Assembly (NCBI GenBank): GCA_030706235.1
Contig: JAUZOY010000003.1
Coordinates: forward strand, 1 to 40,181
DNA: 40,181 nucleotides
Source: Bacteroidota bacterium
GTDB lineage: Bacteria; Bacteroidota; Bacteroidia; Bacteroidales; GWE2-29-8
Reading direction: 5' to 3'
The notes beneath the pieces were generated by a model. It worked only from the letters and a program-made list of their open reading frames with translations. It ran no database searches and was not told the DNA's origin. Made by a program: the position numbers and the translations under genes. Below, in pieces: positions 7,461 through 28,138 of the stretch (the first letter of the stretch is position 1; every line of letters begins with the position of its first letter).

Positions 7461-7495
7461 TCATTAACCATTAGCCATTAACCGTTAACCATTAA
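7461..7495. repeat. Heptamer tandem repeat (CCATTAA)x5 overlapping the ADH stop codon
   Basis: tcattaa ccattag ccattaa ccgttaa ccattaa. Confidence 0.85.
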
Positions 7496-9611: not shown

Positions 9612-10730
9612 TTAACTGGTTTTATGGTATCTCCATATTGCGAGAGCATTGGTTAAAAAAGCAAAAATGATTATGGCAGTAACCTGTGGTTTTATATCAC
9701 TAAGGGTACTGCCTTTTAGTAGTACAAGCCGTATTATGGATACAAGATATGCAGTAGGGTTAATTATATCTATTTTCTGTGCCCATACTGGCATATTACT
9801 TATGGCTGTGAATAAACCACTCATAAGTATAAATGTGAATAAAAAGAACATTGTTACAAACATTGCCTGTGATTGAGTTTCAGAAATAGTTGAGATCAGA
9901 AAACCAAACCCAAGAACTGCAAAAAGATAAATTGAAACTACGCCATATAGAAGTAAAAGACTTCCTACGATTGGTAGGTCGTATAATAATTTTGAAACAA
10001 GAAGCCCTATTGTTAATAATACCAGTCCTAGAATCCAGAATGGTAGCAACTTGCCTGCAATAAATTGGAATCTTCCTATTGGTGTGACATTCAGTTGCTC
10101 GATAGTTCCGATTTCTTTTTCTCTGACAATATTTAATGCTGAAAGAAGGATTCCTATTAGTGTAATGAGTAGTGCCAGTATACCGGGAAGCATAAGCGTT
10201 TTATAATCCAGACGGGGATTAAACCAGTTTGAGTATGTTATATCAAAATATGAAATATTGTTTTGATTCGCTGTTGCTTGAAAATTTGCAGATAATTCTT
10301 TTGCATAATCCGTCAGAATATTTACGGCATATGATGATGCTATTCCTGCTTTCAAACTGTTGATTGCATTAACAGTAACTGATATTCGTGGATTATTCCC
10401 TTTATAAATGTCTTTTTCAAAATCCTTTGGTATCTGGACAATTATATCGGTTTTGTCTCTTTCCATTTTTTTTATTGCAATTGCTGAGGTGGTTTCGAAA
10501 TCTTTCAGAATAAAGTAACCTGAAGCCTGAAGCTTGTTAATTATCTTTTGCGAAGTTGGAGACATGTCTCTGTCAACGATGCCAAGTGAGATATTATTCA
10601 TATCCATGTTAGCAGCATTTACAAGAACTATCAACTGAATTACGGGTACCAGAAATATTATTCTTATCATTGCTTTATCTCTGAATACCTGCAGAAACTC
10701 CTTCCTGATTATTGCACCTATTGTTCGCAT
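9612..10730 (-). CDS. ABC-2 type permease (YbhR-like)
   Basis: IIRKEFLQVFRD, NIVREKEIGTIEQLNVTPI, six TM segments. Confidence 0.92.
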   Translation of the reverse strand: MRTIGAIIRKEFLQVFRDKAMIRIIFLVPVIQLIVLVNAANMDMNNISLGIVDRDMSPTSQKIINKLQASGYFILKDFETTSAIAIKKMERDKTDIIVQIPKDFEKDIYKGNNPRISVTVNAINSLKAGIASSYAVNILTDYAKELSANFQATANQNNISYFDITYSNWFNPRLDYKTLMLPGILALLITLIGILLSALNIVREKEIGTIEQLNVTPIGRFQFIAGKLLPFWILGLVLLTIGLLVSKLLYDLPIVGSLLLLYGVVSIYLFAVLGFGFLISTISETQSQAMFVTMFFLFTFILMSGLFTAISNMPVWAQKIDIINPTAYLVSIIRLVLLKGSTLSDIKPQVTAIIIFAFLTNALAIWRYHKTS

Positions 10731-10761
10731 AAGCAGTTAATTTATATTTTATAAATATTTA

Positions 10762-10789
10762 TAACTCATAACTCATTATTCATCACTAA
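10762..10789. repeat. Degenerate heptamer tandem repeat (TAACTCA)x4 between the permease genes
   Basis: taactca taactca ttattca tcactaa, immediately after the stop of the upstream permease. Confidence 0.65.
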
Positions 10790-10790
10790 A

Positions 10791-11897
10791 TTACGCGTTC
10801 CTTTGTCTGAATTTCTTGATACTAACCGTAATAAATACCATTGTCATTAAATTAAGTACAAGTATTTGTAACCAGACATTTTCAATTCCTGTTCCTTTTA
10901 TCATTACATTTTTAATAGCTTCAATAAACCATTTTGCCGGGAAGATTTGGCATAAAATCTGAAGAATAAATGGCATGTTATCTATAGGAAAAATAAATCC
11001 GGATAATAAAATAGTTGGAAGAAATAATCCTATTATGGATACAATTATTGCCGTTTGTTGTGTGTCAACCATTGAAGAAATCATTATCCCGAGAGATACC
11101 GCAGTTAACAGAAAAACAATGCATACAATAAACATAAGGAACAAACTTCCATGTATTGGCATTTTAAAAATAAACATACTCAAAATGATAATTATGCAGG
11201 CATTAATAAGTGACAATGCAAGATAGGGGATAACCTTACCAATAATTATGGTAGATGGTTTGAGAGGGGAAACTGTAAGAACTCTGAATGTTCCCATTTC
11301 TTTTTCTTTTGCAAGAGTTACTGCAGTCATCATTGCTGAAACTATAAGCATTATCAAAGCAAGAACTCCGGGAACAAACATAAAAACGCTTTTCATTTCA
11401 GGATTATAAAGCATTTTGATTGTTGTATCAAACAGAGTTTTATTACTTGTGCTTTTTGATATATCCTGTTGATAATTAAGTATGATGGAATTAGCATAAT
11501 TAATCAGGATTGTAGCTGTATTCAGATCTGAAGCATCGGCAATGAGTTGAACTTGTGCTTTGTTGTTATGTGTATAGCTTTCTGAAAATTTCTCGGGAAA
11601 TACCACCGCAAGTTTTATTTGTCCATCTCTGAATACTTGTTGCAATTCATTATTTGATTGCAAGGTTTTTACTTTAATAAAATATCCTGAAGATGTAAGT
11701 TTATTGATTATTCCTGTTGAAAGATTATCATTTGAATTATCCAGAATGGCTATTTCTGCATTCTTAATATCATTAGTTATTGCAAAACCAAAAAGTATAA
11801 CTAATACTACCGGCATAGCAAAAACTATGAGAAGTGTTCTTCTGTCTCTCAGTATATGCCTGAATTCTTTTTTTGTAAATGATATTAGTTGTTTCAT
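10791..11897 (-). CDS. ABC-2 type permease (YbhS-like)
   Basis: KKEFRHILRDRRTL, AKEKEMGT, LLSGFIFPIDNMP. Confidence 0.92.
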   Translation of the reverse strand: MKQLISFTKKEFRHILRDRRTLLIVFAMPVVLVILFGFAITNDIKNAEIAILDNSNDNLSTGIINKLTSSGYFIKVKTLQSNNELQQVFRDGQIKLAVVFPEKFSESYTHNNKAQVQLIADASDLNTATILINYANSIILNYQQDISKSTSNKTLFDTTIKMLYNPEMKSVFMFVPGVLALIMLIVSAMMTAVTLAKEKEMGTFRVLTVSPLKPSTIIIGKVIPYLALSLINACIIIILSMFIFKMPIHGSLFLMFIVCIVFLLTAVSLGIMISSMVDTQQTAIIVSIIGLFLPTILLSGFIFPIDNMPFILQILCQIFPAKWFIEAIKNVMIKGTGIENVWLQILVLNLMTMVFITVSIKKFRQRNA

Positions 11898-11900
11898 ATT

Positions 11901-12632
11901 TTATTTAGTAGCTGTTTCACGTGCAAGCATATAAAATACTTCATCCATTGAAGTTGCATTGTATTTTTGTTTTAGATATTGTGGTGAACCCAGGGCATCA
12001 ATCCTTCCGTCAACCATAATGGAAACTCTGTTGCAATATTCGGCCTCATCCATGTAATGTGTAGTTACAAAAACAGTTGTTCCTTCATCTGCAGTTTCAT
12101 AAATTAATTCCCAAAATTGCCTTCGTGTTATTGGGTCAACACCTCCTGTTGGCTCATCCAGAAAAACTATTTTTGGCTCATGTAGAATTGCAACAGAAAA
12201 TGAAATTTTTTGTTTCCATCCCAAAGGTAAGTCTTTAACAAATTTATTTTTTTCAGATATCATTTGAAGTCGCTCAAGTAGTTTGGTAGTTTTTTCTTTA
12301 ATTTGTAGTCTGGTTAACCCGTAAACTGTTCCGTAGAATTCTATGTTTTCTTTAACAGTAAGGTCATTATAGAGTGAAAATTTCTGACTCATATAACCAA
12401 TATTACGCTTTATTTTCTCAGATTGTTTATATACATCGAATCCTGCAACAGTTGCTTTCCCTGAAGTAGGACCAAGCAGACCACAAAGCATTCGCATGGC
12501 TGTCGTTTTCCCGGCTCCGTTAGCTCCAAGAAATCCGAATATTTCTCCTTTACCAACTTCGAATGTTATATTATCCACTGCAGTGAAGTCCCCAAATCTT
12601 TTAGTAAGTTTATCTGCAATTATTGTGTTCAT
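11901..12632 (-). CDS. ABC transporter ATP-binding protein (like the second NBD of YbhF)
   Basis: Walker A GANGAGKT, signature variant LPLGWKQ, Walker B VFLDEPT, TTHYMDEAE. Confidence 0.95.
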   Translation of the reverse strand: MNTIIADKLTKRFGDFTAVDNITFEVGKGEIFGFLGANGAGKTTAMRMLCGLLGPTSGKATVAGFDVYKQSEKIKRNIGYMSQKFSLYNDLTVKENIEFYGTVYGLTRLQIKEKTTKLLERLQMISEKNKFVKDLPLGWKQKISFSVAILHEPKIVFLDEPTGGVDPITRRQFWELIYETADEGTTVFVTTHYMDEAEYCNRVSIMVDGRIDALGSPQYLKQKYNATSMDEVFYMLARETATK

Positions 12633-12679
12633 AAAGTTATTGAGTTCATAAAGTTTATAATGTTTGTAGAGTTCATAAA
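12627..12679. repeat. Nonamer tandem repeat (GTTCATAAA), about 6 units
   Basis: gttcataaa gttattga gttcataaa gtttataat gtttgtaga gttcataaa. Confidence 0.8.
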
Positions 12680-12767
12680 GTTTTAATAAGTCCTGAGATT
12701 ATTTTAGATATTTCTTCTCCTTTGCCTTTTGCCAAGCTATTATATCTTCAAATCTATGAATAACCAT
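12673..12767 (-). pseudogene. Internally deleted four-helix-bundle (23S rRNA-IVP/bAvd-like) gene remnant
   Basis: ATG at 12767 reads MVIHRFEDIIAWQKAKE, the family's F(E)DL/IxxWQKA N-terminus. A shifted frame from 12720 reads GEEISKIISGLIKTL-TGA, a typical C-terminal helix. The middle of the gene is absent. Confidence 0.8.
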
Positions 12768-12808
12768 AACTTTTAACTTTTAACTTTTAACTTTCAACTT
12801 TCAAACTG
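12767..12808. repeat. Heptamer tandem repeat (TAACTTT), about 6 units, overlapping the ABC ATPase stop
   Basis: taacttt x4, caacttt, caaactg. Confidence 0.88.
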
Positions 12809-13713
12809 TTATTCATTAATTCCATAAATGTATCTTCTATGCCTGCATTAATTATTTTAACTATAACATTTTCATGCCCTTTGCTGAAAAGATATTGAGC
12901 CAAATCATTTTTACTTGTTGCCTGGCTTTTTACAGCTAGATGTACATCCTGACCAAAGGAATAACAGCTATGGGTTTCTTCATACATTCTAAGATCTTTA
13001 AGCAATCTGTAAAGATTTTCAGAATGTATTGAAAAAAGTTTTTTACCGAATTTCTCAGTTATTCTTAATGGCGTGTCAATAGCCATAATAGTTCCCTGTT
13101 GTATGAGTGCTACTCTGTCGCATAGCATTGCTTCATCCATATATGGTGTTGAAATAAGAATAGTAATTTCTTTTTCCTTTAATCTTTTAAGCATCCCCCA
13201 GAATTCTTTTCTTGAAACCGGGTCAACTCCTGTTGTTGGTTCATCTAAGCAGAGTACCGTAGGCTTGTGAACAAGAGCACAACATAAAGCCAGTTTTTGT
13301 TTCATCCCTCCCGATAATTTTCCCGCTGGTCGGGTTTGGAATGGTTCTATTTGTACCCAGATATCTTTTATTAAATCATAGTTTTCTTCAATGGTCCCAC
13401 CAAAAATACTGGCAAAAAAATCCAGATTTTCATAAACAGAAAGATCCTGATAAAGAGAAAACTTGCCGGGCATGTACCCAAGTAGTTTTCTGATCTTAAG
13501 ATAATCTTTAACTACATCGAGATTTTCAATAGTTGCTTTCCCTTTATCAGGGAGTAGTAGAGTAACAAGAATATCAAATAGAGTAGATTTTCCTGCACCA
13601 TCTGCGCCTATAAGCCCAAATATTTCTCCCTTATGAACATTTATTGAAATATCCTTTAAGGCAACTATATTGCCATATGATTTGGAAATATTTTCTATCT
13701 GTATTGAATTCAT
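12787..13713 (-). CDS. ABC transporter ATP-binding protein (like the first NBD of YbhF)
   Basis: Walker A GADGAGKS, LSGGMKQ, LCLDEPT, STPYMDEA. Confidence 0.95.
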   Translation of the reverse strand: MNSIQIENISKSYGNIVALKDISINVHKGEIFGLIGADGAGKSTLFDILVTLLLPDKGKATIENLDVVKDYLKIRKLLGYMPGKFSLYQDLSVYENLDFFASIFGGTIEENYDLIKDIWVQIEPFQTRPAGKLSGGMKQKLALCCALVHKPTVLCLDEPTTGVDPVSRKEFWGMLKRLKEKEITILISTPYMDEAMLCDRVALIQQGTIMAIDTPLRITEKFGKKLFSIHSENLYRLLKDLRMYEETHSCYSFGQDVHLAVKSQATSKNDLAQYLFSKGHENVIVKIINAGIEDTFMELMNNSLKVES

Positions 13714-13737
13714 TTACTTAATTAATCATTGAATTTC

Positions 13738-14637
13738 TTATTTGAATATTACTTCTCCCGGCATTCCGATTTTAAGGCTGCCATCATTTTTAACAAGTAT
13801 TTTTATAGCATATACCAGGTTTACTCTTTCGTCTTTCGTTTGGATTATTTTTGGCGTAAATTCTGCTTTATCAGCTATCCAGCTAATTGTCCCTTGGTAC
13901 TCTTTATAATTTTTTCCTGGAATATCGACTAATACTTTTACATTCTGTCTCAATTTAACTTGTGATAGCTGCTCTTCTGAGATATACGCTCTGAGAGTTA
14001 TTTCACTAATATCTGAAATTTTATACAGAGGTTTGCCCTGAGTAGCCAATTCGAATTGTTCTGCATATTTAGAAAGTATAGTTCCTTTGATAGGATTGAT
14101 TATTATACTTTTGGATATCATGTCCTCTATCTGGTCTATCTGAGCTTTAAGTGGTTCGATTTCGGATAGTGTTCCGTTAGTCTGAGTGCTTAACGTTGAG
14201 CGTGTTGCCGCAATTTGTTTTCCAAGTACAAGTATTTGTGAATTTATATCATCTACTTGTTTACCGGTTGCTGCATTTCCTTTCTGAAGGTTAATAATCC
14301 TCTGTTTTTCATGTTCAGCATTCCTAAGTTGTTCCTGAAGTGCGTCTAACTGTACCGGTATATCAGGAGTTTTTGCCCTGAGTGCAGAAATACTGGCATT
14401 AAGCTGCTTCTTTTTTAAATGCAGTTGCAAAGTATCGATATAGCCTATTGTATCACCTGCTTTTAGAAGTTGACTCTCTTTAATATTAAGTTTCATTATT
14501 TTGCCGTTGCCTTCACTTGATACTATAGTTTCATCTGCTTCAAAATTTCCGAAAGCATCTGATTTATGATTCATGTTTTTACATGAAACGATTATTGAAA
14601 ATCCAATAAAAATTATAAATAATTCAGTTTTTCTCAT
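13738..14637 (-). CDS. HlyD family membrane-fusion lipoprotein (YbhG-like)
   Basis: Lipobox IVSC, GNFEADETIVSSEGNGKI, coiled coil, AEFTPKIIQTKDER, LKIGMPGEV. Confidence 0.92.
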   Translation of the reverse strand: MRKTELFIIFIGFSIIVSCKNMNHKSDAFGNFEADETIVSSEGNGKIMKLNIKESQLLKAGDTIGYIDTLQLHLKKKQLNASISALRAKTPDIPVQLDALQEQLRNAEHEKQRIINLQKGNAATGKQVDDINSQILVLGKQIAATRSTLSTQTNGTLSEIEPLKAQIDQIEDMISKSIIINPIKGTILSKYAEQFELATQGKPLYKISDISEITLRAYISEEQLSQVKLRQNVKVLVDIPGKNYKEYQGTISWIADKAEFTPKIIQTKDERVNLVYAIKILVKNDGSLKIGMPGEVIFK

Positions 14638-14687
14638 TTCAATTTAATTTTTGATTATATTCTTAATTATTTTAATAACAAGTTGTT

Positions 14688-15965
14688 TTAATTGTTCCCG
14701 GTTAGTGATATATAGTTTATTTTAGCCTGAAGTAATTGCATTTCATGTAGTTTTAAACTTTGCATAGCCTGATTTTCTTCATTAAGTTCAGTAAGGTAAT
14801 CATCAGATGTAATCACACCATTTAAAAGCTGAACTGAAGCAGCTTCTTTAATTTCTTTACGCTTGGCAATTATTTCCTTATCCTTGTCCAGTAGCATTTG
14901 ATATTTTTCTATTTCCTGTATTTGTTGTCTTATTAGCACTTGATTATTTATTGAAAAGTTTTCCTTTTGTTTGTCTACAATTTTCTTTTGGATTTCAATA
15001 CTCTGTTTTTGTTCTTTGATGGATGTCCAGTTTGAAAGAGGAACAGTGAGTTTAATCCCTGCAATATAATACCATTTGAATTCATCCTCAAGAAAATTCA
15101 GGCCGGGCTTTCCGTCTCCGCCTGTCGCAAAGAAATATACTTTGGGCATATTACCTGTTGAGATTAAGTCTGATTGATTTTGAAGAGTATTTTTCTGAAT
15201 ATCGAATAATTTAAATTCAGGACGATTGGATGCAAGATCCGGTTTTGTATATTTGACTTCAGGAATATTAAGTATTATGTTTTCATCCAGTGTCTTACCT
15301 AGCAAAACAGATAGCATGTCTATCAGTCCTCTCCTGTTTGACTTTAATTCTATTAATATCTGATCGCTATTTAATAAGCTTGCCTGAAGAACATCAAGAT
15401 TCTTTTTAAGTGCTGTGCCGTTTTTTACCATGGTTTCCATCTTGTCGATGTTGGTATTAATATCCTCCTTTAAAAGGTTCGTGATTTTTATATTCTCATC
15501 AATAAGGAGTACATTAAGATAAATTGTGTTGATCTGTTCTTTGAGTTTCTGAATATCAAGCTCAATTTTTTGCTGATCCGCATCTGAAGATGAAATCTGT
15601 AACTGTTTTTGTTTGCTTATTGTAGTCCCATCAAAAATCAATTGTCTAAAATCCAGAGTTGCTTTGTATTGATCTTTAGATAGGGTTGGAATGTTTAATT
15701 TTGGGATTGAAATAGGAATTTTTGTAACATCTGACTGGTAGGTCGCTTGTGCATTTATTTCGGCCTGAGGAAAATAGCCGGCATTTAATGCTCTAATATT
15801 TGCTTCGGATGATTGTTTTAAAAGTGTTTTCTGGTTTGTTAACGGAGAATAATCTATTGCTGATTTATAACATTGTTCAAGTGTTAATTTTTCCTCTGTT
15901 TGTGCATAAACAGATATGTTTCTTGTAAGAATGATCAGCAAAATGAATTTAAATGTTTTTATCAT
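14688..15965 (-). CDS. TolC family outer-membrane efflux protein
   Basis: Signal peptide, LTLEQCY, YFPQ, RPEFKLF, NGVITSDDYL. Located between the TetR and HlyD genes. Confidence 0.9.
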   Translation of the reverse strand: MIKTFKFILLIILTRNISVYAQTEEKLTLEQCYKSAIDYSPLTNQKTLLKQSSEANIRALNAGYFPQAEINAQATYQSDVTKIPISIPKLNIPTLSKDQYKATLDFRQLIFDGTTISKQKQLQISSSDADQQKIELDIQKLKEQINTIYLNVLLIDENIKITNLLKEDINTNIDKMETMVKNGTALKKNLDVLQASLLNSDQILIELKSNRRGLIDMLSVLLGKTLDENIILNIPEVKYTKPDLASNRPEFKLFDIQKNTLQNQSDLISTGNMPKVYFFATGGDGKPGLNFLEDEFKWYYIAGIKLTVPLSNWTSIKEQKQSIEIQKKIVDKQKENFSINNQVLIRQQIQEIEKYQMLLDKDKEIIAKRKEIKEAASVQLLNGVITSDDYLTELNEENQAMQSLKLHEMQLLQAKINYISLTGNN

Positions 15966-15986
15966 TTATCTTTAATTATTTAAAAT

Positions 15987-16601
15987 TCAACATTTCTTTA
16001 TCGCATTTATAACAAATTCAGTAATAATTTTTTTCCTTTCTTCGAGCAGCTCTCCATAGTAAGATTCACCGAATTCAAACACCCATTTAAATATTGGCTT
16101 TGCCAGAAAAGGAAATATACACATTGATAAGATATTCATAAATAAAGATATTGGATTTATCTCTCTTATAGTGCCTTTTATTGTTTCATTTTCAATATCT
16201 TCTGATAATCTTTTAAAAACTTTATTGTAAATATCCTTGTCTTTGAATTTCTTTTCAATTCTTTCTGGATTCTGTGTAATTTCATTTACAATAAAATTTG
16301 GCAGATATGGATTGGATATTAGTGTGTTAATGTAATTATGAATAATCAGTTCAATTTTTTCAAAAAGAGCTATATTGCTATTTGTAGCATCTAAAATACT
16401 GCTAATTAAAGTTTTAAATGCCTCTTCGAAAATTATGTCAAAAAGATTCTCCTTTGAACGGTAATAATAATGAACCATAGCAATATTAACATTTGCTTCT
16501 TTAGCAATATCTCTCGTTGTTGCACTACTGAACCCTTTTGTAATAAATACTTTTCTCGCGGCCTCAATTATGTCTTTTTCTGCGTCTTTGTTCTTTTCCA
16601 T
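15987..16601 (-). CDS. TetR/AcrR family regulator
   Basis: IIEAARKVFITKGFSSATTRDIAKEANVNIAMVHYYYRSKENL HTH. ATG at 16601 preferred over TTG at 16613. Confidence 0.93.
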   Translation of the reverse strand: MEKNKDAEKDIIEAARKVFITKGFSSATTRDIAKEANVNIAMVHYYYRSKENLFDIIFEEAFKTLISSILDATNSNIALFEKIELIIHNYINTLISNPYLPNFIVNEITQNPERIEKKFKDKDIYNKVFKRLSEDIENETIKGTIREINPISLFMNILSMCIFPFLAKPIFKWVFEFGESYYGELLEERKKIITEFVINAIKKC

Positions 16602-16604
16602 TCT

Positions 16605-16659
16605 TTTAATCAACTTCTTTAATCAAATAGTTTAATCAAATGATTAACGCGCAAAAGTA
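16605..16659 (-). promoter_or_regulatory. -7 box (TACTTTTG, 16652-16659) followed by a putative TetR operator array
   Basis: Palindrome TTAATCA-AA-TGATTAA at 16632-16647. TTTAATCAA repeated at 16605, 16618 and 16631 (13-bp period). Confidence 0.7.
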
Positions 16660-28098: not shown

Positions 28099-28126
28099 AA
28101 ATCCCAAATCCTAAATCCTAAATTCT
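28099..28126. repeat. Heptamer tandem repeat (AAATCCT)x4 in the rsmI/thiL divergent promoter region
   Basis: aaatccc aaatcct aaatcct aaattct. Confidence 0.8.
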
Positions 28127-28138
28127 AAAAAAATTCTA

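Follow-up and report, generated by a model that had tools for sequence, protein, structure and literature searches.

A decayed four-helix-bundle gene between inverted repeat arrays

Between two ABC transporter ATPase genes of a Bacteroidota bacterium (GCA_030706235.1; order Bacteroidales) lies the broken remnant of a small inserted gene of the PF05635/TIGR02436 type, whose two flanking short-repeat arrays are inverted versions of one core. The same arrangement was found around this gene family in many bacterial phyla, and it may link three separate puzzles: the intervening sequences of rRNA genes, heptamer repeat arrays and Avd-like proteins. The window, i.e. the whole stretch of DNA that was analyzed, comprises 40,181 nucleotides of contig JAUZOY010000003.1, and the genome is a metagenome-assembled genome of 389 contigs that is 88% complete. 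All features described below are read on the minus strand. According to the Pfam hits, the host operon (9612..16613) encodes a TetR regulator, an outer-membrane efflux protein, a HlyD-type adaptor, ATPase 1, the remnant, ATPase 2 and two ABC-2 permeases.

ATPase 1 (12787..13713, 308 aa; PF00005, 99.6 bits) ends with the tail LKVES, and its last codons and TAA stop lie inside a period-7 array at 12767-12801 (units GAAAGTT/AAAAGTT, core AAAGT in the sense of the genes), for which Tandem Repeats Finder (TRF) gave 5.0 copies with 96% matches. Three overlapping matches of the 20-nt heptamer pattern were observed against 0.00 expected by chance. The five heptamers run directly into an ATG at 12765-12767, which is followed by a 17-codon frame (12717..12767, ATG plus 16 codons). 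At about position 12717 the frame shifts into a second frame (12673..12717) of 14 codons plus a TGA at 12673-12675, so that the remnant measures 95 nt. The TGA lies in the first of three exact copies of an 11-mer (12671-81, 12644-54 and 12627-37; 3 copies against 0.03 expected), the last of which holds the ATG of ATPase 2 (11901..12632, 243 aa; PF00005, 103 bits).

What the initial annotation described at this site is therefore confirmed, but with two corrections. First, the downstream array (12620..12683; AACTTTAYR-type units, core ACTTT) had been taken for a clean nonamer array, whereas TRF gave period 9 with 6.4 copies and only 65% matches, or alternatively period 17 with 2.1 copies. Given that it aligns at 83% (48/58) to a perfect 9/18-nt array in a relative (designated G010), it is a decayed nonamer array. 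Second, the two arrays had been described as different, but the upstream core AAAGTT is the reverse complement of the downstream core AACTTT.

The remnant represents the two ends of one gene

The initial annotation had also proposed that both peptides derive from the termini of one four-helix-bundle gene with a deleted middle, and this was set as a test. A search with tblastn using both peptides recovered only the window itself from the own genome, and the remnant is not among the PF05635 hits of that genome. The only other PF05635 locus, on contig C143, belongs to a different subfamily and is broken by an internal TGA. A DNA search of 40 relatives of the same order, however, identified a full-length gene on contig C400 of G010 that matches both halves. 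Its 114-aa product scores 119.5 bits on PF05635 and 112 bits on TIGR02436, and matches the solved structure of XCC0516 (PDB 2GSC; E 9.7e-11). In BLASTP the N-terminal peptide matched residues 1-17 of this protein (14/17 identities, E 5e-9) and the C-terminal peptide residues 100-114 (12/15 identities, E 8e-7). A global MAFFT alignment of the remnant to the full gene misplaced the halves, but local BLASTN showed 80% nucleotide identity on both sides (61/76 nt for the 5' part, including part of the array, and 60/75 nt for the 3' part). Both halves matched in 41 metagenomic relatives of the same subfamily, and in at least 25 of these the missing piece is 250 nt, a length that shifts the frame. 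Residues 18-99 are thus deleted, and the remnant lacks the intact ORF of about 110-130 aa with the central motif GxxRxxxSxxxNxxE (PMC3936711). At most one G is shared as microhomology at the junction, although the closest relatives, at about 80% identity, do not allow this to be resolved.

One could argue that the collapsed gene is an assembly artefact and that the real genome carries an intact gene. The assembly is fragmented and arrays do break assemblies: contig C400 of G010 ends inside its array, and contigs C290 and C176 of the own genome overlap at an array. In the absence of read data such an error is not excluded, but it is very unlikely, considering that the break lies in unique coding sequence and not in a repeat, and that broken copies are common elsewhere. 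Premature stops were present in 6 of 80 metagenome loci (two of these near-identical), and the C143 copy is broken as well.

The cassette was inserted between abutting genes

The junction between the two ATPase genes was located in 18 relatives. In 14 of these, including the only relative of the same family, the genes overlap or lie at most 28 nt apart, and none of the 14 has arrays there, so the cassette was inserted. The other four carry different inserts: 88 nt in relative G032, 144 nt with another short-unit array in G010, 748 nt in G022, and 803 nt in G027 with an ORF of no known family. The G022 insert holds an ORF between palindromes that weakly resembles an IS200-type Y1 transposase (Y1_Tnp, 21.5 bits, below the 23-bit cut-off). 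None of the 18 relatives has a four-helix-bundle gene at this junction, although G022 has a full one directly after ATPase 2. Of the three states that the initial annotation had predicted for orthologous operons, only the empty and the deleted state were thus seen at this site, the full state being observed only elsewhere.

Inverted arrays flank the gene family in many phyla

PF05635 genes were found in 33 of 41 genomes of the order, with up to 16 per genome, and the best 30 loci (one per genome) were examined. Short-unit arrays lie within 200 nt upstream in 21, downstream in 24 and on both sides in 17 of these loci. The unit differs from copy to copy, and the downstream unit is the reverse complement of the upstream one. 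Array density is 11.2 per kb next to the gene against 2.8 per kb in other intergenic DNA of the same loci. Counting shared 7-mers proved too noisy to establish the relation between the flanks, as cross pairs shared at least three in 51% of cases, and duplex energies against other partners were used instead. In this way, the gene's own downstream flank was the best partner of its upstream flank in 12 of 27 loci.

A scan of species genomes, using an alignment of seven proteins, yielded 80 named loci from Bacteroidota, several proteobacterial orders, Planctomycetota, Clostridia, Acidobacteriota, Nitrospirota, Elusimicrobiota, Ignavibacteriota, candidate phyla and others. Of these, 71 have arrays within 200 nt of the gene, and 95 of the 126 arrays have period 7. 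The own partner beat all 12 random partners in 39 of 78 loci, where 6 were expected. Upstream units are purine-rich (0.67), and 73% carry a stop triplet against 56% of shuffled units, whereas downstream units are pyrimidine-rich and carry no excess of stops or of ATG. The tetramer GTGA occurs in 33 of 113 units of this other subfamily, against 8.1 expected.

In the subfamily to which the remnant belongs, 80 metagenome loci (63-88% protein identity) were recovered, and almost all have AAAG-core arrays upstream and CTTT-core arrays downstream. More explicitly, this polarity holds in 66 of 73 loci. The variable sixth base covaries between the arms: the dominant core variants agree in 43 of 73 loci (shuffled mean 23.2; 0 of 2000 shuffles reach the observed value; r = 0.90), although these loci are related to each other, so that the counts overstate independence. 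Array copy number differs between near-identical loci. In 21 of 28 loci with full flanks, both neighbours run in the same direction as the gene.

Arrays of the same kind also occur without the gene. The own genome contains 70 period-7 arrays, the commonest period, against 11 of period 6 and 14 of period 8, but only two broken PF05635 genes. It has 18 arrays with the AAAGTT/AACTTT core, mostly at gene junctions, and on contig C290 the 7-mer array directly abuts the inverted 9-mer array with no gene in between. The broken PF05635 gene of C143 is flanked by inverted heptamers, while an ordinary arsenate-reductase-like gene (contig C79) is flanked by direct arrays. The AAAGTT-type pattern is patchy among relatives, with 34 hits in this genome, 31 in G010, 37 in relative G029, 12 in relative G035 and 0-4 in the others.

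These findings leave room for the view that the arrays are ordinary intergenic simple-sequence repeats that act on translation of the downstream gene and lie near PF05635 genes only incidentally. Heptamer arrays just upstream of start codons have been described, and a role in translation was proposed (PMC4679880). The abundance of such arrays in this genome, their density of 2.5-2.8 per kb in other intergenic DNA of these loci, and the purine-rich, somewhat stop-enriched upstream units are in line with this. Nevertheless, we consider this view improbable, as arrays are enriched 4- to 9-fold next to PF05635 genes over other intergenic DNA of the same loci, and a purely translational role does not predict that the two flanks of one gene are specifically complementary and covary.

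Interpretation of the cassette

Taken together, the feature is best explained, with fairly high confidence, as a fossil of an IVS-like, foldback-bounded cassette. A small gene was inserted exactly at the stop/start junction of two formerly abutting ATPase genes, with a purine-rich short-unit tandem array before its ATG and the reverse-complement array after its stop, and later lost 250 nt and its reading frame. The analysis itself establishes the homology of both ends to one gene, the deletion, the empty state in most relatives, the location of this gene family between mutually complementary, mostly period-7 arrays in many phyla, the covariation of the arms, and the retention by each protein subfamily of its own array core (AAAGT here, GTGA in another subfamily). 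The functioning of the intact cassette, including any pairing of the arms in the transcript, cleavage by RNase III and the way in which it would reach new sites, is a matter of inference.

By analogy with the intervening sequences (IVS) of 23S rRNA, we favour a model, somewhat less likely than not, in which the host operon transcribes the cassette and the two arms pair into a stem that brackets the gene. RNase III would cut this stem, so that the insert would do little harm to the host transcript and would be tolerated inside operons and rRNA genes. Tandem arms would keep pairing in any register after slippage, and the purine-rich 5' arm would also serve as leader for the gene. In this window only the arms survive, the upstream one now supplying the last codons and the stop of ATPase 1, and the downstream one the A/U-rich leader and ATG context of ATPase 2. 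Two tests did not support the model. The fold of the remnant itself, whose arms share a complementary 6-nt core, is no better than that of shuffled sequences (-22.5 kcal/mol against a mean of -25.3; z +0.87). Furthermore, across 78 loci the sense-strand duplex is no more stable than the antisense one (40 against 37; Wilcoxon p 0.79), so that there is no G.U signature that would point to RNA rather than DNA pairing.

It is possible, though rather doubtful, that the arrays are binding sites for the four-helix-bundle protein itself, envisaged as a basic pentameric ring like Avd, with each subfamily recognizing its own core. Such binding, inferred from sequence patterns alone, could serve autoregulation or help the cassette spread, and may hold together with the stem model. 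The subfamily-specific cores and the multi-copy units, which fit a multimeric binder, support this assumption, as do the facts that Avd binds stem-loops of the element's own RNA in diversity-generating retroelements (bioRxiv 10.1101/2023.10.23.563531) and that the closest solved structure, XCC0516, is described as a pentamer (PMC4990558). On the other hand, shared cores within a subfamily can be explained by common descent alone, and the arrays persist in this genome although both PF05635 genes are broken.

Alternatively, the inverted arrays may act at the DNA level as foldback ends or homology arms, cassettes moving between dispersed array sites by recombination between arrays or through hairpin DNA, with gene-less array pairs as empty or excised landing sites. 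The remnant would then be a MITE-like derivative, as the initial annotation proposed. The lack of strand asymmetry in pairing, the abutting arrays of C290, the 18 arrays with the same core, the variable copy number and the other inserts at the same junction in G010, G022 and G027 are compatible with this. We regard it as unlikely, however, as no recombinase or transposase is linked to the cassette in the loci inspected, there is no second copy of the remnant in the genome, no target duplication was obvious by eye at the outer ends of the arrays, and arms of 20-60 bp are short for homologous recombination. Moreover, the empty orthologous sites carry no arrays, so at this site the arrays arrived with the cassette and were not a landing pad.

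The interpretation given in the initial annotation is thus supported in part. The remnant, the deletion, the insertion and the predicted enrichment of short arrays beside such genes hold, whereas MITE-like non-autonomous mobility is not shown. The idea that stop/start-bearing repeats keep translation coupled holds only to some extent: upstream units carry stop triplets somewhat more often than shuffled ones, but ATG-bearing downstream units are not general (3%).

For this window alone, the finding is a pseudogene of no evident present function. The wider pattern concerns three things that are known separately and that are each unexplained: IVSs of rRNA genes that carry an S23p ORF, the over-representation of heptamer tandem arrays in some phyla, and free-standing Avd-like four-helix-bundle genes scattered inside operons and cas loci. 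If the gene and its inverted arrays are one unit, as the flank complementarity, the covariation and the subfamily-specific cores suggest, the three become one problem. A more far-reaching and rather unlikely reading is that PF05635 genes with their inverted heptamer arrays form one bacteria-wide class of foldback-bounded selfish cassettes. In that view the same element makes the rRNA intervening sequences and splits operons and cas loci, its Avd-like protein recognizes a subfamily-specific repeat core, and its spread and decay seed the long-unexplained heptamer arrays of cyanobacteria, Xanthomonas, Beggiatoaceae and Bacteroidota. The pattern also matters for annotation, as such arrays break assemblies, add tails and start codons to neighbouring genes, as here for both ATPases, and can be mistaken for CRISPR-like repeats.

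Relation to known systems

Several of the components have been described before. PF05635 is homologous to Avd (PMC10053308), and PF05635 genes lie inside cas loci, for example between cmr3 and cmr2 (PMC3936711), and in 16S and 23S rRNA insertions of CPR bacteria (bioRxiv 10.1101/2024.02.27.582315). The link between gene and arrays seems to be new: a literature search on this topic returned only the Coxiella-specific note on heptamers discussed below, although supplements and many subscription papers fell outside its reach and an earlier description cannot be excluded.

Heptamer arrays near gene ends are known from Beggiatoaceae, cyanobacteria and a few Bacteroidetes, and include the TAACTGA repeats (PMC4679880). 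In Xanthomonas, GGGAATC arrays with 70-75 inverted pairs have been reported (PMC4692102). The STRR of cyanobacteria are heptamer arrays as well. Like these, the upstream array described here is tandem, of period 7 and located at a gene end, and the arrays in general are patchy over phyla and variable in copy number. The main texts of PMC4679880 and PMC4692102 do not link the arrays to PF05635 genes (the supplements, which may list neighbouring genes of these repeats, were not covered), whereas here they bracket one gene family and covary.

MITEs and foldback-type elements are likewise small inserts without a transposase and with inverted ends, with internally deleted and gene-less forms, and in eukaryotic foldback elements the ends are themselves tandem arrays. 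Here, no target duplication was seen, there are no multiple near-identical copies in this genome (the 18 arrays share the core but not the remnant), and no autonomous partner with a transposase is known, the only other PF05635 locus in the genome being broken. REP elements with their RAYT (Y1) transposase resemble the cassette in that hairpin-forming intergenic repeats flank a small gene, and one such insert, the weak Y1_Tnp match of G022, occupies the same junction. They involve a different gene family, and their arms are palindromic units instead of tandem arrays. Avd, the accessory protein of diversity-generating retroelements, has a homologous four-helix-bundle fold and binds structured RNA of its own element (PMC10053308; bioRxiv 10.1101/2023.10.23.563531), but no reverse transcriptase, template repeat or variable repeat was found near the remnant or in the loci inspected by eye, where the gene stands alone.

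The closest studied system is the IVS of 23S rRNA that carries an S23p/PF05635 ORF, as in Coxiella, Leptospira and others. In Coxiella the ORF is directly preceded by tandem heptamers of variable number, the ends of the element form a 28-bp stem, and RNase III excises it; such ORFs are often decaying, and the element is regarded as selfish, with an unknown way of moving (PMC4990558). The gene family and the heptamers that end at the ATG are shared with the cassette described here. Complementary termini that can form a stem are shared at the level of the family at large, whereas in the remnant the arms share a complementary 6-nt core but the fold is no better than that of shuffled sequences. 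The cassette differs in that it lies between protein-coding genes of an operon and not in an rRNA helix, in agreement with the absence of any Rfam family from the window, and in that both arms are tandem arrays and not a simple 28-bp inverted repeat, while cleavage by RNase III is for this element inferred by analogy only.

Further short-unit arrays in the window and in the genome

Besides the arrays that flank the remnant, two more period-7 arrays were found in the window, at 7462-7495 (CATTAAC, 4.9 copies) and at 28099-28129 (AAATCCT-type, 4.4 copies). The latter has the same unit type as the arrays that flank the broken PF05635 gene on contig C143 of the same genome. This second PF05635 gene (C143:1-481) belongs to another subfamily, was recovered with a score of 33.3 bits and contains one internal TGA. 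It is flanked by inverted heptamers, with ATTTGGG at 1-25 and AATCCTA at 453-481. A gene-less pair was observed on contig C290 (92-172) of the same genome, where the 7-mer AAAGTT array directly abuts the inverted 9-mer AACTTT array, just upstream of a gene start. The pair represents either a fully emptied cassette or a free-standing hairpin. Positions 1-250 of contig C176 constitute the reverse-complement overlap of this region, and considering that the two contigs overlap here the assembly probably broke at the repeat.

Arrays were also found around a gene of a different kind. On contig C79 of the genome (3778-4250) a 139-aa ORF, which by eye looks like a low-molecular-weight phosphatase or arsenate reductase, is flanked by 8-mer arrays that are direct and not inverted. 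Within the genome as a whole, TRF recovered in addition 40 arrays of period 11 and 32 arrays of period 9 with at least 3 copies, and some of the period-9 arrays have GC-richer units that look as if they lie in coding repeats.

Array organization in related loci

In several of the metagenome loci (L165, L183, L158 and L159) the gene directly downstream of the cassette starts in the last array unit, and judged by eye its N-terminus looks like that of an ABC ATPase, as in the window. A higher-order repeat structure was observed at 1440-2150 of L142, another of the loci with a four-helix-bundle gene. In this case the four-helix-bundle gene is followed by three further copies of a module of about 75 nt that contains the upstream-type array, whereas the complementary array follows only about 260 nt downstream.

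The orthologous operons of two relatives showed other repeats and inserts. In L016 (relative G010, contig C538) short-unit arrays (CTYAGTG, GAATNNN and others) are present at three gene junctions, including a repeated module of about 50 nt upstream of ATPase 1 and a (CTTAGTG)4 array just before the start of ATPase 2. In L008 (relative G022, contig C12) a full PF05635 gene lies directly after ATPase 2 in the same operon, and the orthologs of ATPase 1 and ATPase 2 are separated by a 748-nt insert. This insert carries a 196-aa ORF with near-identical palindromes on both sides, and the ORF weakly resembles an IS200-type Y1 transposase (21.5 bits, below the cut-off of 23).
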